From positions 25,376-89,375 of IMG/VR virus record IMGVR_UViG_3300032241_002220: 64,000 nt of DNA; one strand, 5' to 3'. Both the position numbers and the translations under genes were made by a program. This DNA comes from a virus (lineage: Duplodnaviria > Heunggongvirae > Uroviricota > Caudoviricetes). Of this stretch, positions 5,485 to 44,247 are shown piece by piece (the first letter of the stretch is position 1; every line of letters starts with the position of its first letter). Under the pieces are notes generated by a model, which was not told where the DNA came from, made no database searches, and was given only the letters and a program-made list of their open reading frames with translations.

Positions 5485-5486
5485 TA

Positions 5487-6161: not shown

Positions 6162-6162
6162 A

Positions 6163-7257
6163 ATGATGTACGATTATATAATAATAGGATCTGGTTTTTA
6201 TGGTTCAATATGTGCTTATGAATTAAATAAAGCAGGATATAAATGTCTTGTTTTAGAAAAAAGAAACCATATTGGTGGAAATTGTTATACTGAAAATAGA
6301 GATGATATTAATATTCATATTTATGGGGCTCACATATTTCATACTTCAAATGAAGAAGTATGGAAATGGATTAATCAATTTGTTTCTTTTAATAATTATA
6401 TTAATTCACCTGTGGCTAATTATAATAATGAAATATATTCTTTACCATTTAATATGTGGACTTTCAGTAAACTATGGAATATTACTCATCCATATCAAGC
6501 TAAAGCAATTATAGAAGAACAAAGTAAAGAAATAAATGAACCAACTAATTTAGAAGAACAAGCAATTAAATTAGTAGGTAGAGACGTATATGAAAAATTA
6601 ATTAAAGGTTACACTGAAAAACAATGGAAAAAACCATGTGTTGATTTGCCTAAAGAAATTATTAAACGTTTACCCGTTAGATTTACGTACAACAATAATT
6701 ATTTTAATGATAAATATCAAGGTATTCCTATTGGTGGTTATACCCAAATATTTGGAAAATTATTAGCAGGTATTGAGGTTAAATTAAATACAGATTATTT
6801 ACAAGATAAAATATATTGGAATAACCAAGCCCGTAAAATAATTTATACTGGTCCTATTGATGCTTATTATAATTATCAATTCGGTGAGTTAGAATACAAA
6901 ACAACTTTTTTTGATCATAAAAAAATTATAACAGATAATTATCAAGGAAATGCAGTAATAAATTTCACAAATAAAGATATTCCTTACACCAGAATAATCG
7001 AACATAAACATTTTGAATTTGGAACTCAACCACATACATGGATATCATTTGAATATCCCGTTGATTACAAAATAGGAAAAACAGAACCATATTATCCGGT
7101 TAATGATAAAGAAAATAATTTAAAATATTCTCAATACAAAGAATTGTCTAATCAAGAAAAAAATATTATATTTGGGGGTCGTTTAGCTGAATATAAATAT
7201 TATGATATGCATCAAGTAATTGAATCTGCTTTAAATACAATTAAAACAATAATATGA
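6163..7257 (+). CDS. glf: UDP-galactopyranose mutase
   Basis: 364 aa. N-terminus YDYIIIGSGFYGSICAYELNKAGYKCLVLEKRNHIGGNCYTE...IHIYGAHIFHT matches the FAD-binding UGM signature closely. Confidence 0.85.
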   Translation: MMYDYIIIGSGFYGSICAYELNKAGYKCLVLEKRNHIGGNCYTENRDDINIHIYGAHIFHTSNEEVWKWINQFVSFNNYINSPVANYNNEIYSLPFNMWTFSKLWNITHPYQAKAIIEEQSKEINEPTNLEEQAIKLVGRDVYEKLIKGYTEKQWKKPCVDLPKEIIKRLPVRFTYNNNYFNDKYQGIPIGGYTQIFGKLLAGIEVKLNTDYLQDKIYWNNQARKIIYTGPIDAYYNYQFGELEYKTTFFDHKKIITDNYQGNAVINFTNKDIPYTRIIEHKHFEFGTQPHTWISFEYPVDYKIGKTEPYYPVNDKENNLKYSQYKELSNQEKNIIFGGRLAEYKYYDMHQVIESALNTIKTII

Positions 7258-7928
7258 AAATAATATACAGAATATCAGATGCTGGTTATAATAAAGTAAA
7301 ACCATATTACATAAACAATGAAAATTGTTTAGAGAATGCTAGTCAAGTATTTGATAAAGCTGATTGGTTAGTAATAGCAGACAATTGTTCCCAATCTACT
7401 TTAGATATTATATCCAAATATCAATCCAATATTATTAAAGTATCAGTAGGTCATGGTGCTGGAACATTTAATTTAGCATTAGATGAAGCACTAAAATATG
7501 ATGATGAAGAAATAATATATTTTGTAGAAAACGATTATTTACATAAACCAGGTTCTCAAGATATATTACTAGAAGGTTTTAACACAGGAGCAAATTATGT
7601 TGCTCTTTATGATCACCCCGATAAGTATATAGATGGAGCAAATCCGGAAGTAATAGATGGAGGAGAAATTACTAGAGTTGTATTAACTAATTCCTGTCAT
7701 TGGAAATTAACTAATTCAACAACAATGACTTTTGCTTCTGAAGTTAAAACATTAAAACAGGATGAAGAAATATTAAGACTTTATACAAAAGGTACTTATC
7801 CTAAAGATTTTGAAATGTTTCTTGCTTTAAGAGATAAAGGAAGAAGTCTTATAACTTCTATACCTGGATATTCTACACATGGTGAAACAGCTTGGTTAAC
7901 CCCTTTAACAAATTGGTCAAGAATATGA
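7254..7928 (+). CDS. hypothetical protein (glycan island)
   Basis: 224 aa ORF between glf and a GT2 gene. Confidence 0.5.
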   Translation: MKIIYRISDAGYNKVKPYYINNENCLENASQVFDKADWLVIADNCSQSTLDIISKYQSNIIKVSVGHGAGTFNLALDEALKYDDEEIIYFVENDYLHKPGSQDILLEGFNTGANYVALYDHPDKYIDGANPEVIDGGEITRVVLTNSCHWKLTNSTTMTFASEVKTLKQDEEILRLYTKGTYPKDFEMFLALRDKGRSLITSIPGYSTHGETAWLTPLTNWSRI

Positions 7929-8677
7929 TATCAGTAATTATTCCAACATATAAATCCCCCGATGCTCTTGATTTATGCCTTAAATCAGCAATTGAGGGAC
8001 AAATAAATAAAAATCAAATTATAGTTGTAGTTGATGGTTTTTATAATTTAAATAAAGATGTACTTGAAAAATATAAAGACAATATTGATATTCTTAATTT
8101 AGAAGAAAATGTTGGATTATGTCGAGGAACTAATTTAGGTGTTTACAATGCTCAATATAATAAAATATTAATTGTAAATGATGATAATGTATTTCCTAAT
8201 AAATGGGATATTACTTTAGAAAAAAATTATAGAGTAGAATGTGTAATATCTCCAAATCAAATAGAACCATATCCAAGTATGTTTAAACAATTTAAAATAC
8301 ATGACTTAGGAAGAGATCCTAAAACATTTGATTTAAAAGCATTTTGGGAAAGAGAAATAAAACTAAGCCAACCTAAGAATGATAATACAGGTTCAACACT
8401 CCCTATATTTATGTCTAAAATAGATTATTTAAGATTAGGTGGTTGGGATGAAAATTATGAGATGGGAATGGTTGCTGATTGGGATTTTTTATTAAAATGT
8501 CAATTATCTGGATTAAAAATGTTAAGAACATATGAATGTCATTTTTACCATTTTGCTTCAATCTCAGTAAATGGAGATAAAAGAAAACAAGCAGAACAAA
8601 ATGGTCACGAATATGCTAGATATAAATGGGGGAATTACATCAAACATAACCCTTATAATAATTTAAAATATTTATAA
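7925..8677 (+). CDS. glycosyltransferase family 2
   Basis: ISVIIPTYKSPDALDLC...VVDGF is the classic GT2 N-terminus. Start moved to the internal ATG at 7925 because the track ORF (7892) overlaps the upstream gene. Confidence 0.6.
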   Translation: MISVIIPTYKSPDALDLCLKSAIEGQINKNQIIVVVDGFYNLNKDVLEKYKDNIDILNLEENVGLCRGTNLGVYNAQYNKILIVNDDNVFPNKWDITLEKNYRVECVISPNQIEPYPSMFKQFKIHDLGRDPKTFDLKAFWEREIKLSQPKNDNTGSTLPIFMSKIDYLRLGGWDENYEMGMVADWDFLLKCQLSGLKMLRTYECHFYHFASISVNGDKRKQAEQNGHEYARYKWGNYIKHNPYNNLKYL

Positions 8678-11408: not shown

Positions 11409-11864
11409 ATGCCACTTATACAATTTTCAAACAAAAATAAATACGGTACATTACGAACTCGTATTTTATATACCGAATCAATGCCCTTTAGTATTAATCC
11501 TAAAGGATTTGGTGACACTATAATAGTTAAGGTATTTAAATACAAACATGAACATCATTTACCTCCTACCTTATTTATAGATACAAAAGGAAAAAAATAC
11601 ATTTTACCTACTTGGGTTGAAGTAGTACCGGAAACCACTTTATCTGATATAGAATGGACTCAACCTAAATTAAAAGGTGAGGTTAAACAAGTTAAAGTAG
11701 AATCTAATACTTACCGATTTGAATCTAAAAGTGAACCGGGTTCATTTTATACTGTTACTCAAAAAGGTGATAAATTAAAATGTGATTGCCCTGGAACGTG
11801 GAGAGCAAAAAATAGGGAATGTAAACATATTTTAGAAGTAAAATCAAAATTAAACATAAAATGA
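11409..11864 (+). CDS. hypothetical protein with SWIM-type zinc finger
   Basis: 151 aa. KCDCPGTWRAKNRECKH shows the CxCxnCxH pattern. Preceded by a conserved promoter. Confidence 0.5.
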   Translation: MPLIQFSNKNKYGTLRTRILYTESMPFSINPKGFGDTIIVKVFKYKHEHHLPPTLFIDTKGKKYILPTWVEVVPETTLSDIEWTQPKLKGEVKQVKVESNTYRFESKSEPGSFYTVTQKGDKLKCDCPGTWRAKNRECKHILEVKSKLNIK

Positions 11865-12592
11865 AAACAATAATATTAGGAGATACCCATGGTCGTAACT
11901 ATTGGAAAAAAATAATTGAACACGAAAATCCAAATAGAGTAATCTTTATAGGAGACTATTTTGATTCATTCGATATTCCCGGAGTAGACCAAATTCATAA
12001 TTTTAAAGAAATTATTGAATATAAACAAAATACAAAAACAGAAGTAATAATGTTAATTGGTAACCACGATTATCATTATTTCCCAGAAATTGGGGATTGT
12101 GGAACTAGTGGTTATCAAAGAGGTATTGCTCCAAATATTATTCAAGTAATAGATGAAAACAGACATCATCTTCAAATGGCTTACAATTTTGGTGATTTTG
12201 TATTTACTCATGCTGGTGTTAGTGAACAGTTCATGGATCAAACGTTTGGTAAAACAAATTGGAATGTAGAATCAATGGTGGTTGATTTAAACGAAATGTT
12301 TAAATATAAACCCTTAGCATTCATGTTTAATGGATTTAACGCGTATGGAGATGATCTATGGCAAACACCCATTTGGATTAGACCAAAATCATTAATAGAA
12401 GTAAACCGTGATTATTTAAGAAAAGAAATAATCCAAGTTGTTGGACACACCTCAATGAAACAAATAGATATTGAAGGTAAAGCAACAGGTGGTAGATATT
12501 ATTTTATAGATTGTTTGGATACCTCAGGAGAATATCTTATCATTACGGACGGAGAAGTAACTGTTAACTCGTATAAAAATTATGGAAAGTAA
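11861..12592 (+). CDS. calcineurin-like metallophosphoesterase
   Basis: 243 aa. GDTHG...GDYFD...GNHD motifs. Confidence 0.75.
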   Translation: MKTIILGDTHGRNYWKKIIEHENPNRVIFIGDYFDSFDIPGVDQIHNFKEIIEYKQNTKTEVIMLIGNHDYHYFPEIGDCGTSGYQRGIAPNIIQVIDENRHHLQMAYNFGDFVFTHAGVSEQFMDQTFGKTNWNVESMVVDLNEMFKYKPLAFMFNGFNAYGDDLWQTPIWIRPKSLIEVNRDYLRKEIIQVVGHTSMKQIDIEGKATGGRYYFIDCLDTSGEYLIITDGEVTVNSYKNYGK

Positions 12593-12800
12593 AGATTATA
12601 TTTTACGTAGAGATTTTTTAATCAAACAAATGAGAAAACAAAATTTCTATTTGGAAATGGGTCTTTATAACGAAGGTTCTAAGGGTAATAAGCGAGGTCG
12701 AAAACCTGCTCCTTCTAAAAGAATTGAACGTGAAGTTAACACTAAATTATATTCACCAAAAAAATTAACAAACCAGGAAATAGATGAATTTTGGGACTAA
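12582..12800 (+). CDS. hypothetical basic protein
   Basis: 72 aa ORF. Confidence 0.4.
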   Translation: MESKDYILRRDFLIKQMRKQNFYLEMGLYNEGSKGNKRGRKPAPSKRIEREVNTKLYSPKKLTNQEIDEFWD

Positions 12801-14430
12801 TAAATTAAACATTTTAGGTATTATAGGTGGTACCCACTCTTGTGGTGTTGCCTATGTACAACAGGGAGAAGTGATAGCTGTACTTGAAGAAGAACGCTTA
12901 TCAAGAGTTAAACCATGGAAAGATTTTGAATCAGATTTTTGGAGATATCCTCTTCAAGGTTTAATAACATTACATGACCGTTATAATGTTAATTTTGAAG
13001 ATATAGATTATTTTACTAGTTTTCTTGAATATGATGTTATAGCAAATATGTTGAAAGCAACAGTTAGTTATGATTTACCTAAAGAGAAATTTTTCAAAAC
13101 GGAACATCATGAAACACATTGTGCTTTAGCTTATTATCTATCTGGTTTTGAAGATGATACTCTAATTATAGCAATCGATGGTAGTGGAGAATATCACAGC
13201 GCTAAATATTATTTAGGCAGTAAAGGTGAAATGACTTATATTGATGGAATTGGTATTGATAGAAATTCACTAGGGATGTTTTATGCTGCTATAACGGAAC
13301 TATTAGGATTTAAGCGTTTAAAAGATGAAGGTAAAGTAGTTGGAATGGCTGCTCATGGAGTTTATTGGGAAGGTATTTACAAAGCATTCCATAATGTTCT
13401 TCAAATAGAAGATATTCAAACTAATAAATCAACATTCCCCGGAAATGATACAGCAGGTGGAGATGTTTATTTAAATACTTATAAAAATTTCTTTGAAGTA
13501 GTAGGTAGTAAATGTTGGAAAAATCCTCAAGCACTTAAAGATATAGCATATACTGGTCAGTTGGTGTTTGAAGAAAAAATACTTGAATTAATTGATAATC
13601 TTCACAAACGTTATCCTAATGTTAAAAAATTAGCATTATCTGGAGGTATATTTGCCAATGTTAAATTAAATAAACGAATAAATGAATTAAATTGGGTTGA
13701 TGAAGTATTCATTACCCCACCAATGGGCGATGAAGGATTAATGTTAGGTTCGGCCTTACTTGTAATAAAACATTTTAATCCTGAATTTAAACCTGTTCGT
13801 TTATCTGATGTTTATTTTGGTAATGAATACACTGAAGATGAAGTAAATAAAGCAGCTAAATCAATTTTAGGTACTTATAATTATGTTCCTTTTAATTTTG
13901 ATTTTATTATCAGCTTATTATTAAATAAGAAAATATTAGGTTTATATCAAGGTAAAAGTGAACATGGTCCCAGAGCATTAGGTAATAGAACTATTATGTG
14001 TGAGGCGACACATCCTGAAACATATGATATAATCAATGGTAAATTGCAGCGTAACGATTTTATGCCTTTTGCTCCTGCTGTATTGGATGAAGATGCAGAT
14101 CGTTTATTTGAAATTGATAAATCAAAATATACAGCCGAGTTTATGACTATGTTGTACGATACTAAAGATGAATGGGCTGATAAATTACCTACAGTAACTC
14201 ATCCTAAAGATAAAACAGCACGTATCCAAATAGTAAAACAAAATAGTAATCCATTATTTTATCAGATACTTAAGGAATATAAACAAAAAACAGGTGTTGG
14301 ATGTTTAGTAAATACATCTTTCAATATTCATAATGAACCTATTGTGGATAAACCTGAAGAAGCATTTACCCATTTGAAAAATGGAGTTATTGATTATTTA
14401 GTAACACCGTTTGGTGTTTATAGTATATAA
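12784..14430 (+). CDS. NodU/CmcH-family carbamoyltransferase
   Basis: 548 aa. N-terminal ILGIIGGTHSCGVAYV (ASKHA/Kae1-like) and C-terminal GGIFANVKLN...PMGDEGLMLGSAL are typical of carbamoyltransferases. Confidence 0.6.
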   Translation: MNFGTNKLNILGIIGGTHSCGVAYVQQGEVIAVLEEERLSRVKPWKDFESDFWRYPLQGLITLHDRYNVNFEDIDYFTSFLEYDVIANMLKATVSYDLPKEKFFKTEHHETHCALAYYLSGFEDDTLIIAIDGSGEYHSAKYYLGSKGEMTYIDGIGIDRNSLGMFYAAITELLGFKRLKDEGKVVGMAAHGVYWEGIYKAFHNVLQIEDIQTNKSTFPGNDTAGGDVYLNTYKNFFEVVGSKCWKNPQALKDIAYTGQLVFEEKILELIDNLHKRYPNVKKLALSGGIFANVKLNKRINELNWVDEVFITPPMGDEGLMLGSALLVIKHFNPEFKPVRLSDVYFGNEYTEDEVNKAAKSILGTYNYVPFNFDFIISLLLNKKILGLYQGKSEHGPRALGNRTIMCEATHPETYDIINGKLQRNDFMPFAPAVLDEDADRLFEIDKSKYTAEFMTMLYDTKDEWADKLPTVTHPKDKTARIQIVKQNSNPLFYQILKEYKQKTGVGCLVNTSFNIHNEPIVDKPEEAFTHLKNGVIDYLVTPFGVYSI

Positions 14431-15598: not shown

Positions 15599-16918
15599 AT
15601 GAATAAATTAGATAAACAATACCAAGCATTACTCCAAGACATCTTAGATAACGGAGTTAAAAAAACTGACCGCACAGGAACTGGTACTATATCAGTTTTT
15701 GGAAGACAAATACGTCACAAAATGAGTGATGGGTTTCCTTTACTTACAACAAAGAAAATGTACTTTAAAGGAATTGTAACTGAACTATTGTGGTTCTTGC
15801 AAGGTGATACAAATATTAGGTACCTTATAGATAATGGTAATACTATATGGGTAGGAGATGCTTATAAAAATTATTGTAAATTTGAACATTATAATCCTGG
15901 AACGATTATAAAATCTGATGAAAATGAGTTTGAAAGAGAAGTTATAAAGGTTGATTTAACTCAAGACGAATTTATCAACAAAATCAAAACCGATGATGAA
16001 TTTGCTAAAAAATGGGGTGAATTAGGTCCTATATATGGTGCACAATGGAGAAATTGGACTAAATTTAAAGAATATAAAGATGCTTTTGAAGTAGATATTT
16101 TAGAAGAAAATGAAGATTCAATTTCATTTTCAATGGGTACTAGTGGAATGGTTTATAAAATAGACCAAATCCAAAATCTTATTAATGACCTTAAAACAAA
16201 TCCAGATTCAAGAAGATTAATGGTTAATGCTTGGAATGTAGGTGAGTTAGACCAAATGGTTCTTCCACCATGTCATTATGGCTTTCAAGTTTATACAAGA
16301 GAGTTGAGTTTCGAAGAAAGGTGTGATTATGCCATAAAAGCAGGATGGATGTCTCCTTTGGGTGCGTTTGATTTTCCAGAAACACATTACGCATTGGATG
16401 CCTCAAAAACCCCTAAACGAGCAATCTCCCTCATGTGGAATCAACGTTCAGTAGATACATTCTTAGGTTTACCGTTCAACATCGCTTCGTACGGTTTGTT
16501 ACTTGAGATCATTGCTAAAATGGTTAACATGGTACCAGATGAACTCATAGGCAATCTCGGAGACACACACCTATATCTTAACCACATCGAACAGGCAAAG
16601 GAGCAAATCGGTAGAAAGATTTCAATAGATGAAAGAATATCTTTACTAATAAAAGCAATGGGTTATGAATCATATAAAGATGCTGTTTCAAATTTAATAC
16701 CATTTGGTGGTGGTATGAGCGAGTATTTCGAATCGTTTAAAATACCGTATTATACAAGAGAACCATATTCATTACCAAAATTGGTTCATGGTAAAACAGA
16801 TGCCTTTTATAAAACTTTATCTGAAGATTTATCTCTGTTTGGGCATTTAGATCCTGAAAATTTCACTGTGGAGAATTACCAGTCCCATCCAGCAATTAAA
16901 GCACCACTAAGTAATTAA
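15599..16918 (+). CDS. thyA: thymidylate synthase family protein with large insertions
   Basis: 439 aa. DRTGTGT, FPLLTTKK, ELLWFLQGDTN, PPCHYGFQ, LGLPFNIASYGLL and C-terminal HPAIKAPL are all present, but about 50, 30 and 45 aa insertions relative to canonical ThyA. Confidence 0.85.
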   Translation: MNKLDKQYQALLQDILDNGVKKTDRTGTGTISVFGRQIRHKMSDGFPLLTTKKMYFKGIVTELLWFLQGDTNIRYLIDNGNTIWVGDAYKNYCKFEHYNPGTIIKSDENEFEREVIKVDLTQDEFINKIKTDDEFAKKWGELGPIYGAQWRNWTKFKEYKDAFEVDILEENEDSISFSMGTSGMVYKIDQIQNLINDLKTNPDSRRLMVNAWNVGELDQMVLPPCHYGFQVYTRELSFEERCDYAIKAGWMSPLGAFDFPETHYALDASKTPKRAISLMWNQRSVDTFLGLPFNIASYGLLLEIIAKMVNMVPDELIGNLGDTHLYLNHIEQAKEQIGRKISIDERISLLIKAMGYESYKDAVSNLIPFGGGMSEYFESFKIPYYTREPYSLPKLVHGKTDAFYKTLSEDLSLFGHLDPENFTVENYQSHPAIKAPLSN

Positions 16919-20780: not shown

Positions 20781-21464
20781 ATGAAACTAATACTAAATAA
20801 AGGACAACGACTCTGGTTTACGAGCGATACACACTACAACCATTCAAATATCTGTTCAGCTACTACAAAGTGGACTGATGCCGAAGATATGACTCGTGCT
20901 TTTAATTCATTGGAAGATATGAATAAAACATTAGTTGAAAATATAAATTCATGTGTTGAAGTAAATGATGTTTTGATTCATTTGGGCGATTGGTCTTTTG
21001 GTGGTTTTGATATGATTGAAGAATTTAGAAAACAAATCAAGTGCAAAAACATTCATTTGATACTAGGTAATCACGATAATCATATCCAAAACAACAAGAA
21101 TAACGTACAATCTCTGTTTAGTTCTATTCACGAATATTTGTATTTGGATTTGAGAATACCAGCTGGAAAAGAAGTAAACAAATTTAGAATGGTTTGTATG
21201 CATTATCCTCTAGCTAGTTGGAACGGAATGAATGATGGTGTTGTTCACCTTCACGGACACGTTCATCTTCCTAAAGATCTTAGAGTGGCTAAAGGTAAAG
21301 CAATGGATGTTGGTGTTGACGGAAACGATCTATACCCAATTGAATTGTTTCAAATATTGAATATTATGAAAACACAACCGGTTATGAGCTTGTCATTGCC
21401 AAAAGATCATCACGTTAAAAGAGTAGCACCAGTTGAAGAAAAAGGAGGACATTATGGATGTTAA
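20781..21464 (+). CDS. calcineurin-like metallophosphoesterase
   Basis: FTSDTHYNH...HLGDW...LGNHDNH motifs. Start set at MKLILNK after the promoter-like TGTATATTTACA. Confidence 0.6.
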   Translation: MKLILNKGQRLWFTSDTHYNHSNICSATTKWTDAEDMTRAFNSLEDMNKTLVENINSCVEVNDVLIHLGDWSFGGFDMIEEFRKQIKCKNIHLILGNHDNHIQNNKNNVQSLFSSIHEYLYLDLRIPAGKEVNKFRMVCMHYPLASWNGMNDGVVHLHGHVHLPKDLRVAKGKAMDVGVDGNDLYPIELFQILNIMKTQPVMSLSLPKDHHVKRVAPVEEKGGHYGC

Positions 21465-21846
21465 TAAATTAGAAGAATTCCTTAAAAGTGAAGAAGGACA
21501 ACGTTCTATGGATAAATGGGTTATGGATCTTGTAAATAAAAAAGAACATCTAAAACGTTGGGTTGAAAAGTTTAAAAAGTGGGCAGAACCAAATATAGAT
21601 GCTGCTTTAGAAATACTAATCACCAAATATGACTCTTCAGAATATGTTAAACGAGAATATAAAATCGGATATGAACCAAGAGAAGAATTTCTTTGGTTAG
21701 CTTTCGAGTATGCTAGAATATATTGTAAACCTTGTGAAGATGAAAAATATTTTAATATGTTTACAGGAGAGGCTTATTATATAGGTTCATATGTAATTCA
21801 ATCAATGCATGGTCAAGGTTCTGTTATAAGAATTGATAAAATATAA
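21433..21846 (+). CDS. hypothetical protein
   Basis: 137 aa ORF. Confidence 0.45.
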   Translation: MKKKEDIMDVNKLEEFLKSEEGQRSMDKWVMDLVNKKEHLKRWVEKFKKWAEPNIDAALEILITKYDSSEYVKREYKIGYEPREEFLWLAFEYARIYCKPCEDEKYFNMFTGEAYYIGSYVIQSMHGQGSVIRIDKI

Positions 21847-21856
21847 AATTAAAACA

Positions 21857-22279
21857 ATGGATAAAATATTATATCTTACAAGAGGTCTTCCAGGATCTGG
21901 AAAAACAACTCTGGCTCATCAATTAACAAATTCACATTCTATTTGTGAAGCAGATAAATTCTTCTATGATAAAGAAGGTAATTATAATTGGGATGGAGAT
22001 AAACTAAATGAGGCTCATAATTGGTGTGTAAGTGAAGTTAAAGTTCGAATGATGGATAATGCTAGAAATGAACAATTTTATCCTATAATAGTTGTTTCAA
22101 ATACTTTCACTATGGAAAGTGAAATGGAGCCTTACATAGAACTAGCTAAAAAATATGGTTATATAGTAATTTCATTAATATTGGAAAATAGACATGGCTC
22201 TGTATCAAAACATAACGTTCCTATTAAATCTTTGAACAAAATGGAACAAAGATTGCGACAAAATATAAAACTTCGTTAA
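21857..22279 (+). CDS. P-loop nucleoside/polynucleotide kinase-like protein
   Basis: Walker A LTRGLPGSGKTTLA at the N-terminus. Size and layout resemble Pnk-type kinase domains. Confidence 0.5.
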   Translation: MDKILYLTRGLPGSGKTTLAHQLTNSHSICEADKFFYDKEGNYNWDGDKLNEAHNWCVSEVKVRMMDNARNEQFYPIIVVSNTFTMESEMEPYIELAKKYGYIVISLILENRHGSVSKHNVPIKSLNKMEQRLRQNIKLR

Positions 22280-22282
22280 AAA

Positions 22283-22337
22283 AGTTTGGAGGGGCGAATA
22301 CCCCTTCGTACATTTATGTAAGTAAAAATAAAAACAT
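22283..22337 (+). promoter_or_regulatory. promoter: TTTGG + GGGGCGAATACCCC hairpin spacer + TACATTTATGTAAGTAAAAATAAAAAC
   Basis: The hairpin sits in the spacer between -33 and -7. ATG 22338. Confidence 0.6.
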
Positions 22338-23171
22338 ATGATATTAAACCTAGCATATCCTGAAGATTCTCAGGTAAATTTTCAAATATCTCAATTTCCA
22401 GATGGGCAACAATCTTTAACTATCCTTTCAGGTGTAGGACCTGAGGATTGTATTATTATAGGTTCCCATTTAAATTCATTTAAAGATTTAGAATTAATAA
22501 TCTGTGCCAATGTGGCTTTAAAAGAAATGGGAGTTAAAAATATTGAATTGTATGTTCCTTATTTTCTAGGTGCTCGTTCAGATAGGAAATTTGGTGAAGG
22601 TGGATTTAACTATTTAAAAACTGTTATTTGCCCTATAATCAATTCTCAAAATTTTAGTAAAGTAATAGTTTTAGACCCACATTCAGATGTACTTGAGGCT
22701 TGCTTAAATAATTTTGAAAAAAGAAGCAATATAGGAGTTGTATCTCATGCTCTTCAAGGCATTGATGCTGAAAAAGAAGATACAGTAATTATATCTCCTG
22801 ATGCCGGTGCATTAAAAAAGATATACGATATTGCTAAGGTATTTGACTTACCAAATGTAATTACAGCAGGTAAGGTTAGAGATATTCCAACAGGTAAAAT
22901 ATTAAAAACTGAATTGCCTAATATTACTCAATTTGAAGGTAAGAAATTCCTTATCATAGACGATATTTGCGATGGAGGTAGAACGTTTATTGAACTAGCG
23001 AAAGCAATTAAAGAACAACTCCCTGATGCTGAATGTTATTTATGTGTTACTCATGGTATTTTTAACCAGGGATTTGATGAATTATCAACTTATTTTAAAA
23101 AAATCTATTGTACAAATAGTGTAAAAGATTTTAATTGGAAACCTTTTATTAATCAACTAAATGTATTTTAA
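22338..23171 (+). CDS. ribose-phosphate pyrophosphokinase-like (PRPP synthetase family)
   Basis: 277 aa. YVPYFLGARSDRK resembles the Prs PYFGYARQDR motif. FLIIDDICDGGRT is a PRPP-binding loop. Confidence 0.6.
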   Translation: MILNLAYPEDSQVNFQISQFPDGQQSLTILSGVGPEDCIIIGSHLNSFKDLELIICANVALKEMGVKNIELYVPYFLGARSDRKFGEGGFNYLKTVICPIINSQNFSKVIVLDPHSDVLEACLNNFEKRSNIGVVSHALQGIDAEKEDTVIISPDAGALKKIYDIAKVFDLPNVITAGKVRDIPTGKILKTELPNITQFEGKKFLIIDDICDGGRTFIELAKAIKEQLPDAECYLCVTHGIFNQGFDELSTYFKKIYCTNSVKDFNWKPFINQLNVF

Positions 23172-23173
23172 TT

Positions 23174-23599
23174 ATGGACTTAACAAATAAATACGTTACC
23201 CGTCTTAGGAAAGAGTGGGAACAATATGGAAAAATTATAGTTGCAGTAGACTTTGATGACACTATTTCTCCTTGGAAATTTTCAAAAGAAGAACTTCAAG
23301 ACACAGTAGACTTAGTAAAAGAAGTACAACAAACCGGAGCTTATATTGTTATATTTACAGCCTGTTCTCCAGATAGATATGAAGAAATTTCATCTTATGT
23401 TAATTCTTTAGGTATTAAAGTAGATGCTATCAATCAAACACCAATAGAGATACCTTATGGTAATCATAATAAAATCTATGCCAATATCTTTTTAGATGAT
23501 CGCGCAGGACTTGAAGAAGCCAAAAAAATATTGCGAGAATGCATGTATCTTCAAAGAAGCTTTAAAAGATCGCAAATTACTTTGGACGAAGTTGGATAA
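23174..23599 (+). CDS. HAD-like hydrolase (DxDxT)
   Basis: IVAVDFDDTISP motif near the N-terminus. Confidence 0.35.
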   Translation: MDLTNKYVTRLRKEWEQYGKIIVAVDFDDTISPWKFSKEELQDTVDLVKEVQQTGAYIVIFTACSPDRYEEISSYVNSLGIKVDAINQTPIEIPYGNHNKIYANIFLDDRAGLEEAKKILRECMYLQRSFKRSQITLDEVG

Positions 23600-23657
23600 A
23601 AATTTGGCTACCTCAAACATTAGTCGTATATTTACGTAAATAAAAAATTAAAAAATT
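23600..23657 (+). promoter_or_regulatory. Bacteroidetes-type promoter (TTTGGCTACCTCAAACATTAGTCGTATATTTACGTAAATAAAAAATT)
   Basis: ATG 23658 (nadV). Confidence 0.65.
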
Positions 23658-25202
23658 ATGTTTAAACCAGTTAGTTTATTTTACACAGACGGATATAAGA
23701 TTGGCCACAAGAAAATGTTAGCCCCAGGAACTACAAAATTATATGGTACTTGGATTCCTCGTAGCACAAAATATGCTCCTACCGGTGTTACAAAAATAGT
23801 ATCGTTTGGTCAACAGCTTGTAGTTCGTTGGTTAAATGATGAGTTTACAGAACATTTTTTCAACCAACCAAAATCAGTAGCAACCCAATTTGGTAAAGAT
23901 ATGTCAATGTATCTTGGAATGGATTATGATGCTACCCATTTTGAAGCACTTCATGATTTAGGTTATTTACCTATTCGAATCAAAGCATTACCAGAAGGTA
24001 TTGAAACATTACCTAATGTTCCTCATATGACATTCATCAATACAGTAGATGGTTTTGCGTGGTTAACTTTATATTTGGAAACGATTATATCTTCATTAGC
24101 TTGGAAACCTTCAACATCAGCCACTATTGCTCTACAATATCGTAGGAATTTAGTTCAATGGGTTATGAAAACAGATCCGGCTAACGCGTGGTTGATTCCT
24201 TTCCTCGCACACGATTTCTCTGCTCGTGGTTTATCTCCTTGGGACATGTTATCAAGCGGTTTAGGACATGCTACTTCGTTTAGAGGTTCTGATACCATTA
24301 TTTGTATTCCTGGTGCTCGTTATTTTTATAATGAACCTGAAAATGAAGTTTGTATCAATTCGGTAAATGCTTCTGAACATAGCGTTTCAACAACTAAAAT
24401 CTTTACAGTTGGTGAACAACAAATGATTGCAGATTGGTTGGTTGATTTTCCTAAAGGAATATTATCAATTGTATCAGATACGTTTGATTTGTGGAAGTTG
24501 ATTACCGAATACTTACCTGCAAACAAAGAAGCAATCATGGCTCGTGATGGTAAGTTGGTTATCCGTCCTGACTCTGGTGATCCGGTTGATATTATTTGTG
24601 GGTTAAACACTAAAACTAAGGTTGAATATTTTCAAAATGCTGATGCTCCAGATGTTAAAGGTGTAATCGAATTACTTTGGGAAATCTTCGGTGGTACAAT
24701 CAACGAACAAGGTTACAAAGTTCTTGATCCACACATCGGAGCCATTTACGGTGACTCAATTACATTGGAACGTCAAATTCAGATTTATGAAAGGTTAGCG
24801 GCTAAAGGTTTTGCTTCAACTAATATTGTACTCGGTGTTGGTTCTTATACATACCAAATGAATACTCGTGATACTTTAGGTTTTGCTGCTAAAGGTGCCT
24901 GGTTTGAAGTTGAAGAAGAATACGATGCCACTCCAGAAGAACATGGAGAACCAGTTGTTGATTTTTATATACCTGGATTTAATAAAATAGGTTACGACAT
25001 CTACAAAGATCCAGTAACCGATTCAGGTAAAACAAAGAAATCTTTGAAAGGTCTTATCATGGTAGATGAAAATCTTGAAGTACACACCCAATGTACACCT
25101 CAACAAGAGGCTCAAGGTTTATTACAAACCATTTATATGGATGGTAAATTCTACAATCAAACAACATTAACTGAAATTCGCGCTAAACTTGAAAAGCTAT
25201 GA
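23658..25202 (+). CDS. nadV: nicotinamide phosphoribosyltransferase
   Basis: 514 aa. N-terminal LFYTDGYKIGHKKM...TKLYGTWIPRS matches the NAMPT/NadV signature. Size fits. Confidence 0.8.
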   Translation: MFKPVSLFYTDGYKIGHKKMLAPGTTKLYGTWIPRSTKYAPTGVTKIVSFGQQLVVRWLNDEFTEHFFNQPKSVATQFGKDMSMYLGMDYDATHFEALHDLGYLPIRIKALPEGIETLPNVPHMTFINTVDGFAWLTLYLETIISSLAWKPSTSATIALQYRRNLVQWVMKTDPANAWLIPFLAHDFSARGLSPWDMLSSGLGHATSFRGSDTIICIPGARYFYNEPENEVCINSVNASEHSVSTTKIFTVGEQQMIADWLVDFPKGILSIVSDTFDLWKLITEYLPANKEAIMARDGKLVIRPDSGDPVDIICGLNTKTKVEYFQNADAPDVKGVIELLWEIFGGTINEQGYKVLDPHIGAIYGDSITLERQIQIYERLAAKGFASTNIVLGVGSYTYQMNTRDTLGFAAKGAWFEVEEEYDATPEEHGEPVVDFYIPGFNKIGYDIYKDPVTDSGKTKKSLKGLIMVDENLEVHTQCTPQQEAQGLLQTIYMDGKFYNQTTLTEIRAKLEKL

Positions 25203-25597
25203 AAGAACAATTTGTTACATACGAAATAGCTATAATCTTAAAAGAAAAAGGGTTTAATGAAGATTGTTTAGGTGTATATATCGATAAAGAATTAACTATA
25301 GGTTTACCGGAAACTACATTAAATGTAATTACTAAATATTATGATATTCTTGAAAAAGAAGAATATTTATTAGCTCCATTATGGCAACAAGCAATTGATT
25401 GGTTTAGAGAAAAACATCGTTTTATTATAACTATAGATTTTTTAAACAAACAAGAATCATTACACCCTAACGATCCAGAATGGACATCAGAATTATATAA
25501 TATGGATAACTTTCATTATATCATAGCTGAATACGATAGATACTCATACGAAGACGCAAGACAAGTAACTATTGAACATGCCTTAACATTGATTTAA
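25199..25597 (+). CDS. hypothetical protein
   Basis: 132 aa ORF. Confidence 0.45.
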   Translation: MKEQFVTYEIAIILKEKGFNEDCLGVYIDKELTIGLPETTLNVITKYYDILEKEEYLLAPLWQQAIDWFREKHRFIITIDFLNKQESLHPNDPEWTSELYNMDNFHYIIAEYDRYSYEDARQVTIEHALTLI

Positions 25598-25662
25598 TAT
25601 GGTAATAAAAATCTTTATAGCAATAGTAGTAACACTTATACTTTTACCTAATTTTAAAAAAA

Positions 25663-26799
25663 ATGGAAAATAACAATAGCGTTTGCTTCATAGCAAAAAT
25701 AAACGAAATAAAAGAAATACCGGGAGCCGACAATATCGAACAGGCAATGGTAGGCAACTGGTCTTGCATCATCAAAAAAGGAGCTTATGCTGAAGGTGGT
25801 TTAGTGGTTTGTGCTACTACAGACGCTGTTATACCTGAAGACTTGGCCGAAAAGATGAACGTAACAAACTACTTACGTAAGGGCAACCGTGTGCGTACAG
25901 TAAAGCTTCGTGGTGTTTATTCCGAGTGTTTGGTTATACCTTTTGAAATCGGAGACGTTATGACTAAAGACGAGTTACACGAAGGTAAAGACATGATGGC
26001 TATATTGGGTATTATAAAGTTTGAACCTCCCGTAAAGCAAATTCAACTCGCTTCAGGTAAAAAGATACGCTATAGTGAAAATCCAAATTTTCATATATAT
26101 TATAAATTTCCAAATCTTAAAAACGTATCATGTATGTTTACAGAAGAGGACTCGGTTCAAATCACACGCAAGATACACGGCACTTCATCTAGGTATGGTA
26201 TAGTGAAAAAGAATAAATTATCTTTTTGGGATAAATTCAGAAAGTTCTTTAGGATAGCTAATGAATGGATTGATTACGAGTTTGTAGTAGGTTCACATAA
26301 CGTTGAAAAGGGATCCGATTCTCAAGGTTTCTATGATACAAATGTTTGGTATGAAATAGCCAACAAATATAAGATCAAAGAAAAGCTTTGGGATTATGTA
26401 AAAAAGTATATGTCTTTAGAAGAACTAGGTTCTGGTGTTGTAATATATGGTGAAATCTATGGAGCCGGTATTCAAAAGGGTTATGATTATGGTCTTAAGG
26501 ATATTCAATTTGCTGGATTTGATGTTATGGAAAATGGGCAATATTTGAGTGCATTTAATACTCTTCTTGTTTTAAAATGTATGATAGATTTACCTCATGT
26601 CCCTGTATTATACGATGGTCATTGGTCTCAAGAAATTCAAGATAAGTATGTATTTAATAACTTTATTGAAGGTACAAAAGTACCACACGAAGGTATTGTT
26701 ATCAAGCATACTTCAGGTAATCGTTTTAAAGTCGCAAAAGTGATTAATCCAGACTATTTAATTTATGGAGAAAAACATGATATAGGAGACTCACACTAA
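25663..26799 (+). CDS. Rnl2-family RNA ligase
   Basis: 378 aa. Nucleotidyltransferase motif I RKIHGTSSRYG (T4 Rnl2 has EKIHGTN). GEIYGAGIQKGYDYG parallels Rnl2 GEFAGPGIQKNVDY. Confidence 0.75.
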   Translation: MENNNSVCFIAKINEIKEIPGADNIEQAMVGNWSCIIKKGAYAEGGLVVCATTDAVIPEDLAEKMNVTNYLRKGNRVRTVKLRGVYSECLVIPFEIGDVMTKDELHEGKDMMAILGIIKFEPPVKQIQLASGKKIRYSENPNFHIYYKFPNLKNVSCMFTEEDSVQITRKIHGTSSRYGIVKKNKLSFWDKFRKFFRIANEWIDYEFVVGSHNVEKGSDSQGFYDTNVWYEIANKYKIKEKLWDYVKKYMSLEELGSGVVIYGEIYGAGIQKGYDYGLKDIQFAGFDVMENGQYLSAFNTLLVLKCMIDLPHVPVLYDGHWSQEIQDKYVFNNFIEGTKVPHEGIVIKHTSGNRFKVAKVINPDYLIYGEKHDIGDSH

Positions 26800-37083: not shown

Positions 37084-37136
37084 AAATGTGTGGAGGAGCG
37101 AAAGCTCCTTCGTATATTTACATAAATAAAAAGCTT
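37084..37136 (+). promoter_or_regulatory. promoter: TGTGG + GGAGGAGC-GAAA-GCTCCTTC hairpin + TATATTTACATAAATAAAAAGCTT
   Basis: GNRA-loop hairpin in the spacer. ATG 37137. Confidence 0.55.
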
Positions 37137-37919
37137 ATGAAAAATTTAAATTTTATTCCACTTAACAACGATGTGAACAAATTAATTGCTTTTACACCTT
37201 CATTAGATGGTGGATGGCGGAAAAACCAAAGGATTGAATCTAAACCTTTTTATACTGAAACATTGGATGTTGTAAAAATGTTACAAAAGGAAGGATGGAG
37301 AGTAGATGGTTCGTATGAAAATAGAAATAAAGCATCTCGTAAAATAGGTAAACATTGTGTTCGTTTATCTCATCCTGATTTAGGAATAAAAATTCAGGGT
37401 AAAAATGAAGGTTTTGCTAGTATGTACTTAACTAATAGCTGTAATGGTTCATCTCCATTAAATATGGATTTTGGAATGTATCGCCAAGTTTGTTCAAATG
37501 GTTTAGTTGTTAAAGATATTTATGCTGATTCAAAAATCAAACATACTGAAAAAGATTATAATCGTTTACCTCAAATTATTGCAGGTTTGGAATCTAAGAT
37601 TCAACCTATGTTTCGAAAATTTGAACATTTAAAAAATGTTACTTTAACAGATAAACAAATGAGAGATCTTGCTAAAGAAGCATCACTTATTCGTTTTGAA
37701 CAAGATCATAAAATCAATACAGATCAATTGCTTAGTGTTCGTCGTGTTGAAGATGAAGGAAACAATCTATGGGCTGTTTATAATCGCATACAAGAAAATT
37801 TAACACAGCCTAATATGTTAATAGATGAAAAAGGTAATTTAATTAGTGATATATCTAATCCGTTAGTTGACATTAGTATTAATCAAGGTTTATACGATCT
37901 TGTTGAAGCTTATGCATAG
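37137..37919 (+). CDS. hypothetical protein, paralog A (DUF932-like?)
   Basis: Start placed after the conserved promoter (track ORF 37086 runs through it). Shares LTNSxxG...F..VC.NGLV with the next gene. Confidence 0.5.
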   Translation: MKNLNFIPLNNDVNKLIAFTPSLDGGWRKNQRIESKPFYTETLDVVKMLQKEGWRVDGSYENRNKASRKIGKHCVRLSHPDLGIKIQGKNEGFASMYLTNSCNGSSPLNMDFGMYRQVCSNGLVVKDIYADSKIKHTEKDYNRLPQIIAGLESKIQPMFRKFEHLKNVTLTDKQMRDLAKEASLIRFEQDHKINTDQLLSVRRVEDEGNNLWAVYNRIQENLTQPNMLIDEKGNLISDISNPLVDISINQGLYDLVEAYA

Positions 37920-38003: not shown

Positions 38004-38804
38004 ATGTTAAACTTAAACAATTCAGAATTCTTAAATCAAGAACAAATCCGCAAAATCGCTCCAAGCGTATTTACAAAACAAGGTTCAGATACTACCTCAG
38101 AAAAGTATGCTCATATTCCCACTAATCGTATTATCGAAGATATGGAAACCTTGGGTTGGGGTGTTGTTGATGCTAAAGAGGTTAAAGCTCGTAGGCAAAT
38201 AGGATACCAAAAACATTTGGTTGTATTTCGCAATAACGATATTGTTATCGAAGGTTCAGATAATGATACTGTTTATCCTCAAATCTTGTTAACCAATAGC
38301 CATGATGGTAAAAATGCTTTTACTTTCACAGCTGGTTTGTTTCGTATGGTTTGTGAAAATGGTTTGGTTATATCCAGCCAAGAATTCAACGATATGAAGA
38401 TTCGTCACTATGGTTATGATTTTGAAACTCTTCAAAACACAATCAAAGAAATGGTTGAAAAATTGCCTTTGACAGTTGAATCGATGAACAAATTTAAGCA
38501 AACTGAGCTTGATCAAGAAGCTGCTTTGGATTTTGCTAAACGAGCTGTTGGATGTCGTTTTAGTGAAGAAGAAATTGAAAATGTTAAAATCAATTGGGAA
38601 GATTTGTTAACACCAACCCGCGTTGAAGATAAAGGAAACGATCTTTGGAGTGTGTTTAATGTAGTTCAAGAAAAATTAGTTCACGGTATGTTCAATTATA
38701 CCTACGGTAATAAACACCGTAAAGCTCGTAAAATCAAAAACTTCAAACAAGATATGGTTTTGAACGAGAAATTGTATGATTTGGCTTTAGAATACGCTAA
38801 CTAA
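38004..38804 (+). CDS. hypothetical protein, paralog B (DUF932-like?)
   Basis: 266 aa. LLTNSHDGKNAFTFTAGLFRMVCENGLV parallels paralog A. Promoter upstream, terminator downstream. Confidence 0.5.
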   Translation: MLNLNNSEFLNQEQIRKIAPSVFTKQGSDTTSEKYAHIPTNRIIEDMETLGWGVVDAKEVKARRQIGYQKHLVVFRNNDIVIEGSDNDTVYPQILLTNSHDGKNAFTFTAGLFRMVCENGLVISSQEFNDMKIRHYGYDFETLQNTIKEMVEKLPLTVESMNKFKQTELDQEAALDFAKRAVGCRFSEEEIENVKINWEDLLTPTRVEDKGNDLWSVFNVVQEKLVHGMFNYTYGNKHRKARKIKNFKQDMVLNEKLYDLALEYAN

Positions 38805-38846: not shown

Positions 38847-39311
38847 ATGAACATTCAAAGAATTACACCCGAAGAAGCTCAACAATATATTAGTTGCAAA
38901 GACGATTTGTTAGGTTACCCTTCAGAATTTTATACTTTGACTCCTTCAATCGAACTGGGTTGGGAAGATGTTACATATTATACCGCTAGAAAGAAAAATA
39001 TGGTTAATCGTGAAGGAGAAGGTAAATATTGGATTTACGTTTTATCTAACGATTCCGTGCCTAATATGATTAAAATTGGATACACGAAGCAATCGCCCGA
39101 AGAACGCGCAAATCAATTATCTGCTGCCACAGGTGTTGCTACTCCATTTAAAGTTGAATATGTTTTTAAATGCCATGAAGGTGAATTTTTAGAATCTGAG
39201 GTGCATAAACATTTAGATGCGTATCGTGTTAGTAACAATAGGGAGTTTTTTACTATTAGTGTAAAAGAAGCACAAGAAATTATTGAAGAACTTGGAAAAA
39301 AATACATTTAA
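38847..39311 (+). CDS. GIY-YIG-like (T5orf172/MUG113-type) domain protein
   Basis: WIYVLSN...IKIGYT...ERANQL...PFKV pattern. Confidence 0.45.
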   Translation: MNIQRITPEEAQQYISCKDDLLGYPSEFYTLTPSIELGWEDVTYYTARKKNMVNREGEGKYWIYVLSNDSVPNMIKIGYTKQSPEERANQLSAATGVATPFKVEYVFKCHEGEFLESEVHKHLDAYRVSNNREFFTISVKEAQEIIEELGKKYI

Positions 39312-40075: not shown

Positions 40076-40945
40076 ATGAAAAGGTTTACGTATGTGCTAG
40101 CTCTCGCACTTTCTTTGAGCACTATTTTTTCAATGCAATCTTGTGAACGAATTAGTCCTACTGAGGCTGGTTTTAAGATTAGCAATTCAGGAAATTATCG
40201 CGGTATTGATAGTTTACCACTTTTAACAGGTTGGCAATTTTACACTCCCGGTTTTAATTACATTGTAACCATTCCTACAGTAATGCAACATGAAGTTTGG
40301 ACTGATTCCAAAGAGGGTCAAGAGGGTATGAATGCAATTACAATCGCTTGTATGGGTGGTGCCGGTTTTAGGGTTGATGTTGGTCTAAACTACCACGTTG
40401 ATGCAAATAAAGCTTCCCATATTTACCTTAAATGGAGGAATGATGATCTAAACCAGATTACAAACCAGTATATTAAGAATATTGTTCGTGGTTGTATGCA
40501 AGATGTTTCCGGTCATATTACAGTTGATAGTATTCTAACAAATCTACCGGCTTATGAACATGAAGTTGCATCTAATATAACTAAGAAACTAGGTGCTGAT
40601 GGGTTTATTGTAGACGGTTTTAACATTACATCTCAACCACGTCCTACAGATGCTAACTTGGCTGCTTCAATCAACGCTAAGGTAAAAGCAAAACAGGATG
40701 CCGAAACCTCGGTTATGGAACTACAAAAATCAATTGCTGAAGCAAACAAGAAAATTGCTGATGCTCGTGGTGATAGCGCCTCTAAGGTAATCGAATCAGC
40801 TGGTGAAGCCGCAGCTATACGTTTGAAACAACAAGTGGTTACACCAACATATGTTGAGTATATCAAAGCTAGTTCTTGGGACGGTAAATTACCAAGTGTT
40901 ATGACTGGTTCTGGTGGTACAATGTTGAATATAAGTACAAAATAA
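40076..40945 (+). CDS. lipoprotein with SPFH/band-7-like domain
   Basis: 289 aa. Lipobox FSMQSC. Central region resembles prohibitin/stomatin. Ala/Lys-rich coiled-coil C-terminus. Confidence 0.4.
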   Translation: MKRFTYVLALALSLSTIFSMQSCERISPTEAGFKISNSGNYRGIDSLPLLTGWQFYTPGFNYIVTIPTVMQHEVWTDSKEGQEGMNAITIACMGGAGFRVDVGLNYHVDANKASHIYLKWRNDDLNQITNQYIKNIVRGCMQDVSGHITVDSILTNLPAYEHEVASNITKKLGADGFIVDGFNITSQPRPTDANLAASINAKVKAKQDAETSVMELQKSIAEANKKIADARGDSASKVIESAGEAAAIRLKQQVVTPTYVEYIKASSWDGKLPSVMTGSGGTMLNISTK

Positions 40946-44168: not shown

Positions 44169-44241
44169 GTTCCTGAGGACAAAATGGTTGAGTCGTCACC
44201 CTTTCAAGGTGAAGGAGCGGGATCGTTACCCGTCAGGAATA
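44169..44241 (+). tRNA. tRNA-Glu (TTC)
   Basis: Acceptor GTTCCTG/CAGGAAT (one G-U). Anticodon stem TCACC/GGTGA, loop CTTTCAA. T-arm GCGGGATCGTTACCCGT. Confidence 0.7.
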
Positions 44242-44247
44242 CAACAA

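Follow-up and report, generated by a model that had tools for sequence, protein, structure and literature searches.

Repair of nuclease-cut tRNA by phages is a classic counter-defence, and to our knowledge only the Pnkp/Rnl1 enzyme pair of phage T4 is understood in detail. A 64,000-nucleotide (nt) stretch of a Caudoviricetes virus genome (IMG/VR record IMGVR_UViG_3300032241_002220, positions 25,376 to 89,375; hereafter referred to as the window) raises the question of whether a different set of enzymes performs such repair, as a first-pass annotation had placed a candidate RNA end-healing and sealing module at positions 20781-26799. Here we report a computational analysis of this region. The region probably encodes a cassette of three enzymes for healing and sealing broken nucleic-acid ends, comprising a metallophosphoesterase, a minimal polynucleotide kinase and an Rnl5-family ligase, and interrupted by a nicotinamide adenine dinucleotide (NAD+) salvage cassette. 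Each of the three proteins belongs to a recognizable family and retains intact catalytic motifs, those of the kinase being only partly equated with T4 Pnk residues, and the linkage of the three genes is conserved, with a ligase slot filled by either an Rnl1 or an Rnl5 enzyme.

Gene layout of the locus

The window has a G+C content of about 30%, and nearly all of its long open reading frames (ORFs) are encoded on the + strand. Eight + strand ORFs are tightly packed between 20.7 and 26.8 kb, with spacing ranging from a 4-nt overlap to 66 nt:

20781-21464, + strand, stand-alone metallophosphoesterase of the aq_1665/COG4186 type (Pfam Metallophos, E 3e-9; phrog_547, E 3e-43)
21454-21846, + strand, orfX, an ORF without assigned function (opens at TTG 21433; probable ATG at 21454)
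21857-22279, + strand, P-loop AAA_33 kinase of 140 residues (AAA_33, E 3.5e-10; phrog_2071, E 5e-41; phrog_505 'polynucleotide kinase', E 2e-7)
22338-23171, + strand, phosphoribosyl pyrophosphate (PRPP) synthetase (Prs; ribose-phosphate pyrophosphokinase) (phrog_619, E 4e-66; TIGR01251, E 1.4e-30; Pfam Pribosyltran and Pribosyltran_N)
23174-23599, + strand, small capless haloacid dehalogenase (HAD)-type phosphatase, BT0820-like, with a DFDDT (DxDxT) motif (NF046079, E 7e-7; PDB 2OBB, E 0.003; phrog_1238, E 3.5e-22)
23658-25202, + strand, nicotinamide phosphoribosyltransferase (Nampt) (phrog_448, E 4e-154; NF006629, 414 bits against a cut-off of 405; Pfam NAPRTase, E 1.3e-28)
25199-25597, + strand, orfY, an ORF without assigned function (phrog_12005, E 2e-8)
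25663-26799, + strand, Rnl5-family RNA ligase of 378 residues (Pfam PHA02142 OB-fold and RNA_ligase; TIGR02306; PDB 5COT)

This tight packing indicates that the three genes singled out in the first-pass annotation, and their start codons, are real, and the ATG starts given there match the N termini of homologues. The calcineurin-like metallophosphoesterase at 20781 and the P-loop kinase at 21857 are both borne out by the Pfam matches listed above, as is the placement of phosphoesterase, kinase and ligase within 6 kb, although the annotation had overlooked the NAD+ salvage cassette lying between them. A megablast search of the region against 50,697 phage records returned zero matches, and the window is without a close cultured relative. 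No Pfam or PHROG family matched orfX, homologues of which occur near the module in five of the related loci described below (L007-L009, L042 and L085); homologues of orfY occur near it in four (L024, L046, L056 and L081).

Candidate 5′-end healing kinase

We propose, from its predicted fold and profile alignments, that the kinase is a minimal stand-alone polynucleotide 5′-kinase that would serve as the 5′-end healing enzyme. Sequence searches of the kinase against the PDB were not significant (best E 0.61 with a single-sequence hidden Markov model), so that structure prediction and profile–profile comparison were required; NCBIfam yielded no family for either the kinase or the first phosphoesterase. 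An AlphaFold2 model of the kinase, built from 24 homologues, has a predicted local distance difference test score of 82. Its top Foldseek matches are T4 Pnk (1ly1, E 2.7e-6) and Clostridium thermocellum Pnk (CthPnk), with E values from 3e-6 to 1e-5 and template modelling (TM) scores of 0.65-0.69, followed by PFK-2 kinase domains and Mucorales kinases, whereas adenylate kinase is a far weaker match (E 4e-4, TM 0.47). Similarly, hhalign aligned the kinase with T4 PseT over T4 residues 1-143, including the lid helix (probability 94.9%, E 4.8e-8), whereas a control comparison with the T4 deoxynucleoside monophosphate (dNMP) kinase reached 16% and covered only the P-loop. The kinase is therefore not placed among the nucleotide or dNMP kinases.

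Among the kinase homologues, the P-loop residues G10-K16 (and T17), D33 and R112-H113-G114 are invariant, and D33 directly follows a predicted strand (residues 29-31) in the AlphaFold2 model. In the hhalign alignment, R112 pairs with R122 of T4 and D33 is out of register with T4 D35; the equivalent of T4 Arg38 is either Lys34 or absent, and T4 R126 pairs with a non-conserved residue. The residue-level equivalence of the kinase to T4 Pnk, as read from these alignments, is thus only partly clear.

The kinase consists of a single domain, lacking the fused DxDxT (HAD) 3′-phosphatase of T4-type Pnkp, and the HAD phosphatase at 23174 is a gene of its own, BT0820-like, whose presence is not conserved along with the module. 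The kinase family is large, comprising 5,760 clusters (50% identity, E < 1e-10), and includes fusions in both orders with HD phosphoesterase domains (HD-kinase, P0143 and P0180; kinase-HD, P0194) and with ligases (Rnl1-kinase, P0159; kinase-Rnl1, P0164 and P0228). HD-Pnk is a characterized end-healing architecture, encoded beside a ligase in Runella (PMC6097658). Homologues of the kinase are present in 622 cultured phage records, including phages of Escherichia coli, Pseudomonas, Vibrio and Klebsiella, most of them annotated only as "ATPase" or "hypothetical protein".

Candidate 3′-end healing phosphoesterases

The first phosphoesterase (20781-21464) has a complete two-metal site, in which D16-T-H18, G69-D70, G96-N97-H98-D99 and H158-G159-H160-x-H162 are invariant across 22 homologues. 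It thereby displays the motifs of the two-metal metallophosphoesterase superfamily, and its Pfam Metallophos match lies above the cut-off. Its subfamily, aq_1665, is uncharacterized, and its sole close structure, 1XM7, is of a protein without assigned function. We propose that this enzyme heals 3′ ends, as a 2′,3′-cyclic phosphodiesterase, a 3′-phosphatase or both; given the uncharacterized subfamily, the proposal is drawn from gene context alone. The enzyme is neither fused to the kinase nor similar to lambda phosphatase, so the likeness to PnkP suggested in the first-pass annotation holds as an analogy and not at the level of protein family.

The annotation had also correctly noted a second metallophosphoesterase elsewhere in the window:

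11861-12592, + strand, second metallophosphoesterase (Pfam Metallophos, E 1.8e-8; motifs GDTHG...GDYFD...GNHD)

This protein matches phrog_8238, a 737-position kinase–phosphoesterase–ligase profile, at positions 173-349 (E 9e-6), and gave no match in the PDB. Its homologues lie at most 8 kb from the kinase in 10 loci, and in L076 a homologue is located directly between the kinase and Rnl5, replacing the phosphoesterase of the first type. The second phosphoesterase is a loose associate of the module and possibly an alternative 3′-end healing enzyme.

Rnl5-family ligase

Domain and profile matches place the ligase in the Rnl5 family (DraRnl/NgrRnl type), and we propose it as the sealing enzyme. 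Residues 10-93 form a PHA02142 OB-fold domain (PF21189, E 1.4e-15) and residues 164-358 an RNA_ligase nucleotidyltransferase domain (PF09414). In the PDB, its match to Naegleria gruberi NgrRnl (5COT; E 4e-17, with ligase residues 10-126 aligning to NgrRnl residues 10-129) is far stronger than that to T4 Rnl2 (E 0.26). The family profile of Deinococcus DraRnl, TIGR02306 (RNA_lig_DRB0094), covers residues 10-366 of 378 (E 5.5e-31), with a score of 108 bits that lies under the NCBI equivalog cut-off of 151; as the alignment reaches positions 5-339 of the 341 in the model and only 12 ligase residues remain, there is no C-terminal appendage. This agrees with the definition of Rnl5 by an N-terminal domain and a nucleotidyltransferase domain without such an appendage, for which phage homologues have been noted (PMC4408790). 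The KIHGT sequence at residues 170-174 is motif I with the nucleophile Lys170, and K170, G173, E215, G263-E264, E343-G344 and K359 show at least 90% conservation across 23 homologues. Identity to any Rnl5 of cultured phages does not exceed 28%.

The first-pass annotation had recognized an RNA ligase with a KIHGT motif, which stands, and had assigned it to the Rnl2 family, which does not: the Rnl2 model TIGR02307 gives E 1.6e-3 and 18 bits against a cut-off of 197, and the Rnl2 C-terminal domain is missing. Nor do the profile searches place the protein in a DNA ligase family. Characterized Rnl5 ligases seal 3′-OH/5′-PO4 nicks in duplexes with an RNA 3′-OH strand (PMC4408790, PMC5397189). The distinction from Rnl2 matters because these are duplex nicks and not single-stranded anticodon loops (PMC4408790).

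Conservation of the three-gene linkage

We collected 86 loci containing homologues of the kinase, 80 of them from viral contigs picked by similarity to the query kinase. A phosphoesterase lies near the kinase in 71 of the 86, and in 69 an RNA ligase is encoded on the same strand no more than 8 kb away; it is of the Rnl1 type in 47 loci and the Rnl5 type in 26, both types being present in four. When the kinases were clustered at 90% identity, 38 of the 48 clusters retained the phosphoesterase, 39 the ligase and 35 both. The linkage holds at 50-64% kinase identity despite changes in gene order and, because it joins the three types of gene in numerous diverged loci, it exceeds chance.

In many of these arrangements the genes directly adjoin, separated by 0-6 bp or with start and stop codons that overlap, in the order phosphoesterase–kinase–Rnl5 (eight loci) or phosphoesterase–kinase–Rnl1 (four loci). 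A further order is Rnl1–phosphoesterase–kinase with an extra Rnl5 downstream, and on contigs of 200-280 kb the kinase has a phosphoesterase homologue (45-55% identity) at its side and is followed, in some cases with stop and start codons overlapping, by an Rnl1-type ligase. In three loci (L001-L003), a Band 7 gene sits between the kinase and Rnl1. Cultured phages from other lineages carry the triad as well, namely Vibrio phage PS17B-2, Cronobacter phage GAP31, the record notes of which cite homologues in Salmonella phage PVP-SE1, and Escherichia phage Bas59, with homology confirmed by local searches. In Bas59, a Vequintavirus of the BASEL collection, the three genes carry the annotations "RNA ligase", "polynucleotide kinase" and "putative phosphoesterase", and a tRNA cluster is located about 3 kb away. 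Together with the placement of the kinase beside Pnk and its fusions to Rnl1 and HD domains, the conserved linkage upholds the end-healing and sealing logic that the first-pass annotation had proposed.

Rnl1 and Rnl5 occur in otherwise similar contexts, including around an insertion of Prs and Nampt genes (the window and L008 compared with L022 and L030), and as they occupy the same slot we read the difference as replacement in place. Going a step further, phage Rnl5 could be the dedicated sealing partner of a widespread healing unit of two genes, for an aq_1665-type metallophosphoesterase and a minimal Pnk, and be interchangeable with Rnl1 in this position; we advance this idea tentatively and regard it as open to considerable doubt.

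Proposed mechanism and a DNA-repair alternative

The three enzymes would act in the following sequence. Host defence ribonucleases would cut tRNA or other structured RNA, leaving a 2′,3′-cyclic phosphate (or 3′-phosphate) and a 5′-OH. The metallophosphoesterase (20781-21464) would strip the 3′ phosphate to yield a 3′-OH, and the 140-residue kinase (21857-22279) would move a nucleoside triphosphate phosphate onto the 5′-OH. The Rnl5 ligase (25663-26799) would then self-adenylylate on Lys170, activate the 5′-phosphate and join the ends. In this scheme the activities, the order in which they act, an RNA substrate and a role in counter-defence are all inferred. The first-pass annotation had specifically named tRNA as the substrate, a claim that we do not carry forward as a result; because characterized Rnl5 ligases prefer nicked duplexes, tRNA is here only a candidate substrate.

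The same preference is the starting point of the alternative that survives best, which we nonetheless consider unlikely: that what the module repairs is DNA or RNA–DNA junctions and not tRNA. Nicks in the phage DNA would have their 5′-OH and 3′-phosphate ends cleaned by the kinase and phosphoesterase, and Rnl5 would seal those with a ribonucleotide-ended 3′-OH strand, as might arise after an RNA patch or at primer junctions. Characterized Rnl5 enzymes indeed need a nicked duplex with an RNA 3′-OH strand, and loss of DraRnl makes Deinococcus radiation-sensitive (PMC4408790, PMC5397189). Moreover, HD-Pnk has been described as a DNA/RNA end-healing enzyme (PMC6097658), and an ATP-dependent DNA ligase is present in the same cluster in Vequintavirinae. 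However, the ligase slot is filled in 47 of the 86 loci by an Rnl1-type enzyme, and Rnl1 seals single-strand breaks in RNA (PMC4408790). The existence of kinase–Rnl1 fusions and the richness of these genomes in tRNA genes also argue for RNA, as does the T4 rnlA record, which annotates tRNA repair together with PseT in restrictive prr hosts.

Nested NAD+ salvage cassette

The triad is split in the window by the PRPP synthetase, HAD phosphatase, Nampt and orfY genes (22338-25597), which take up about 3.3 kb of the 6-kb span. Genes in the order Prs–(HAD)–Nampt lie between the kinase and the ligase in the window and in its 96%-identical relatives L007-L009, the HAD phosphatase being confined, among the loci, to the three that are closest to the window. 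In three further loci (L022, L030 and L068), Prs and Nampt lie directly against an Rnl1 ligase. Nesting of Prs and Nampt in the module or against its ligase thus occurs in three gene orders and with both ligase families. In Bas59, GAP31 and a Klebsiella phage, too, the triad has NAD-related genes nearby, encoding a sirtuin-domain protein, Prs and nicotinamide mononucleotide (NMN) adenylyltransferase. Nampt-based NAD+ reconstitution (NARP2) is a known phage counter-defence (bioRxiv 10.1101/2024.02.11.579819), and NAD+ synthesis and RNA repair have both been listed among the conflict systems of jumbo phages (Iyer et al., PMC7824862).

Since Prs lies near the kinase in only 10 of the 86 loci and Nampt in only seven, we read the two cassettes as two counter-defence units sharing a location. 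Most likely, PRPP synthetase and Nampt act in parallel with the repair enzymes, rebuilding NAD+ after attack by host NADases and standing outside the repair chemistry; a functional coupling of the Prs–Nampt genes to repair, beyond co-location, is less likely.

The proximity of these genes suggests a second alternative, in which the kinase and phosphoesterase themselves work with PRPP synthetase, the HAD phosphatase and Nampt in nucleotide or NAD+ metabolism, for example as a kinase of nicotinamide riboside and a phosphodiesterase of ADP-ribose or nucleotides, and the ligase is an unrelated neighbour. The kinase does lie 59 bp upstream of Prs in the window, with the Prs–HAD–Nampt block following, the recurrence of Prs and Nampt in L022, L030 and L068 and the NAD-related genes of the cultured phages fit the same pattern, and phage P-loop kinases fused to NMN adenylyltransferase exist (PMC7824862). 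Nevertheless, we find this explanation quite improbable. An RNA ligase accompanies the kinase in 69 loci, far exceeding the counts for Prs and Nampt; the best structural and profile matches of the kinase are polynucleotide kinases; the fusions of its family are with RNA ligases and HD domains and not with NAD enzymes; and the ORFs scanned in the 64-kb window include no NMN adenylyltransferase.

Weighing the evidence

That the three genes are independent accessory genes, merely sharing an early or auxiliary region, is the least probable explanation, which we give hardly any credence: other genes do separate the triad in the window, no operon signals stand out, and the kinase and Rnl5 are far apart in some phage lineages, but linkage at 50-64% kinase identity with changing gene order, ligase replacement, overlapping coding ends and gene fusions all speak for a module, and a random 16-kb window would hold an RNA ligase only about 10% of the time, a figure that is an estimate for a 100-280-kb genome with one or two RNA ligase genes and not a computed control.

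Several observations nevertheless temper our reading of the region as a healing and sealing cassette. The activities of all three proteins are predictions. For the kinase, even the family profile finds no significant match among PDB sequences (best E 0.065). As the viral loci were picked by kinase similarity, their synteny may be partly inherited rather than selected. The ligase of the window does not adjoin the kinase, being 3.4 kb away from it, and in Pseudomonas Pakpunavirus genomes the kinase and the Rnl5 homologue are about 41-46 kb apart. A scan for promoters and terminators gave no signal above shuffled expectation, so that an operon is neither supported nor excluded by the scan. Furthermore, solitary kinase homologues (43-49% identity) reside in the chromosomes of Halomonadaceae (Modicisalibacter, Halomonas and Phytohalomonas) and Flammeovirga (L094, L096-L098, L103, L105, L106 and L109), and homologues of the phosphoesterase and ligase are absent from the surrounding 6 kb in all eight loci; the kinase family is therefore not confined to the module. 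In L094 and L103, the kinase neighbours are unrelated housekeeping genes, and the context is uninformative. Finally, the papers on DraRnl and NgrRnl report no physiological substrate or function (PMC4408790, PMC5397189), and since the characterized Rnl5 enzymes seal duplex nicks, repair of anticodon loops by the window ligase is not established.

Genomic context

The wider genome invests in translation and RNA maintenance, with about 24 tRNAs (21 detected by ARAGORN and three more by Rfam), a transfer-messenger RNA (tmRNA), and Ro60/TROVE, cREC and RNase H-like proteins; components of this sort have been described for RNA repair in phages (PMC7824862). The tRNA array, tmRNA and Ro60 of the first-pass annotation are all confirmed by ARAGORN, Rfam and domain matches. 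A second RNA-maintenance cluster lies within the tRNA array, at 45249-48448:

45249-46790, TROVE/Ro60 protein, inside the tRNA array
47036-47121, tRNA-Leu
47123-47584, protein with a cREC 'cyclic-phosphate processing receiver' domain (E 1.6e-19)
47596-48051, RNase H-like protein (PF04308)
48053-48448, tmRNA

The cREC domain has been discussed as part of RNA-repair and NAD+-centred systems (Iyer et al., PMC7824862). An Rfam search found no Y-RNA-like partner of Ro60. ARAGORN also reports a tRNA-Asp with the unusual anticodon ATC at 43942-44015, located 233 bases upstream of an ordinary tRNA-Asp (GTC) at 44248-44321. An ORF called at 44184-44609 runs across tRNA genes and is probably spurious.

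The first gene of the window (158-889), to which the annotation had ascribed a Tpt1/KptA-like motif, is not a Tpt1 enzyme. It matches PF01885 over model positions 61-134 only (E 0.004; 17.6 bits against a cut-off of 26), and its family profile matches Tpt1 in the PDB with E 0.06 over 36 residues, through an LYH...GL.P motif. The catalytic tetrad of RslTpt1 consists of Arg16, His17, Arg64 and Arg119 (PMC6097658), and zero invariant arginine or histidine residues are found in the N-terminal 125 residues of ORF 158-889 across 22 homologues; with this sub-threshold score and the catalytic residues missing, we rejected the Tpt1/KptA identity. The ORF stands instead at the head of a glycosyltransferase cluster. 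This glycan-modification cluster (902-8677) contains several family-2 glycosyltransferases, a methyltransferase (5487-6161) and a UDP-galactopyranose mutase (6163-7257, E 3.5e-73).

Other features of the window include a NodU/CmcH-like carbamoyltransferase (12784-14430), tandem DUF932 paralogues (37086-37919 and 38004-38804), a T5orf172/MUG113 domain protein (38847-39311) and an SPFH/Band 7 protein (40076-40945). A thymidylate synthase ORF (15599-16918) encodes 439 residues, of which residues 1-347 span only 246 PHROG profile positions, suggesting an insertion of about 100 residues. The GC skew changes sign at about 50 kb, yet the long ORFs remain on the + strand, and beyond 51 kb there are large ORFs, one of which (58087-61857) encodes 1,256 residues.

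Discussion

Our analysis depicts the cassette as a known strategy assembled from uncharacterized parts, which probably mends RNA cut by host defence nucleases. It would perform the same three steps as T4 PseT (Pnkp) and RnlA (Rnl1), namely 5′ phosphorylation, 3′ dephosphorylation and ATP-dependent sealing. The window kinase and the kinase domain of T4 Pnk are homologues, and the partner ligase in many related phages is an Rnl1 homologue of RnlA. Unlike in T4, the window kinase is a separate protein without a HAD fusion, the candidate for the 3′ step is a metallophosphoesterase, and the ligase is an Rnl5, with no Rnl1 in the window.

The pairing of enzymes is that of the bacterial Pnkp–Hen1 system, in which CthPnkp combines a kinase, a metallophosphoesterase and an Rnl4 ligase in one polypeptide. 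CthPnk ranks with the best structural matches of the window kinase, and weak matches of the kinase and both phosphoesterases to phrog_8238 fall on the corresponding segments. The window differs from Pnkp–Hen1 in having no single polypeptide, lambda-type phosphatase, Rnl4 or Hen1. In Runella slithyformis, HD-Pnk and a ligase (with Tpt1) provide another case of a stand-alone healing enzyme beside an ATP-dependent ligase, encoded by overlapping ORFs (PMC6097658). The likeness to Runella is one of architecture, reinforced by the HD fusions of the window kinase family in both orders, whereas the window phosphoesterase is a separate metallophosphoesterase rather than an HD domain and no true Tpt1 is present in the window.

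The Rnl5 ligases DraRnl of Deinococcus and NgrRnl of Naegleria share the domain layout and motifs of the window ligase and are its best database matches; unlike them, the window ligase sits in the context of healing enzymes. Closest in gene content are the triads of cultured phages (Vequintavirinae Bas59, GAP31 and PVP-SE1, and Vibrio phages), which encode a homologous kinase (about 44-46% identity in four phages) and phosphoesterase clustered with an RNA ligase near tRNA genes, as in the window, but use Rnl1-type ligases and other gene orders. The literature searched contains no characterization of any of these triads. The nested genes, in turn, resemble NARP2 (Nampt and NMN adenylyltransferase), as the window Nampt passes the curated cut-off and PRPP synthetase supplies the co-substrate. 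They differ from NARP2 in lacking an NMN adenylyltransferase among the scanned ORFs and in being nested in an RNA repair module. The use by phages of polynucleotide kinases together with phosphoesterases, which are rarely calcineurin-like, and ATP-dependent RNA ligases has already been stated (PMC7824862); our literature search, partial in its coverage, found no description of the triad or of the Rnl1/Rnl5 exchange.

The cassette is common across phages, and this result would improve the annotation of many phage genomes. The presence of Rnl5 and Rnl1 in the same genomic slot makes the question of the Rnl5 substrate testable, and tractable phages with the Rnl1 version exist, such as the Vequintaviruses of the BASEL collection. 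The cassette may also help to predict which phages escape tRNA-cleaving defences. If phage Rnl5 is indeed the dedicated sealing partner of the healing unit, as tentatively suggested above, this would provide the first biological context for Rnl5 and for the orphan aq_1665 family: the repair of nuclease-cut structured RNA during infection.

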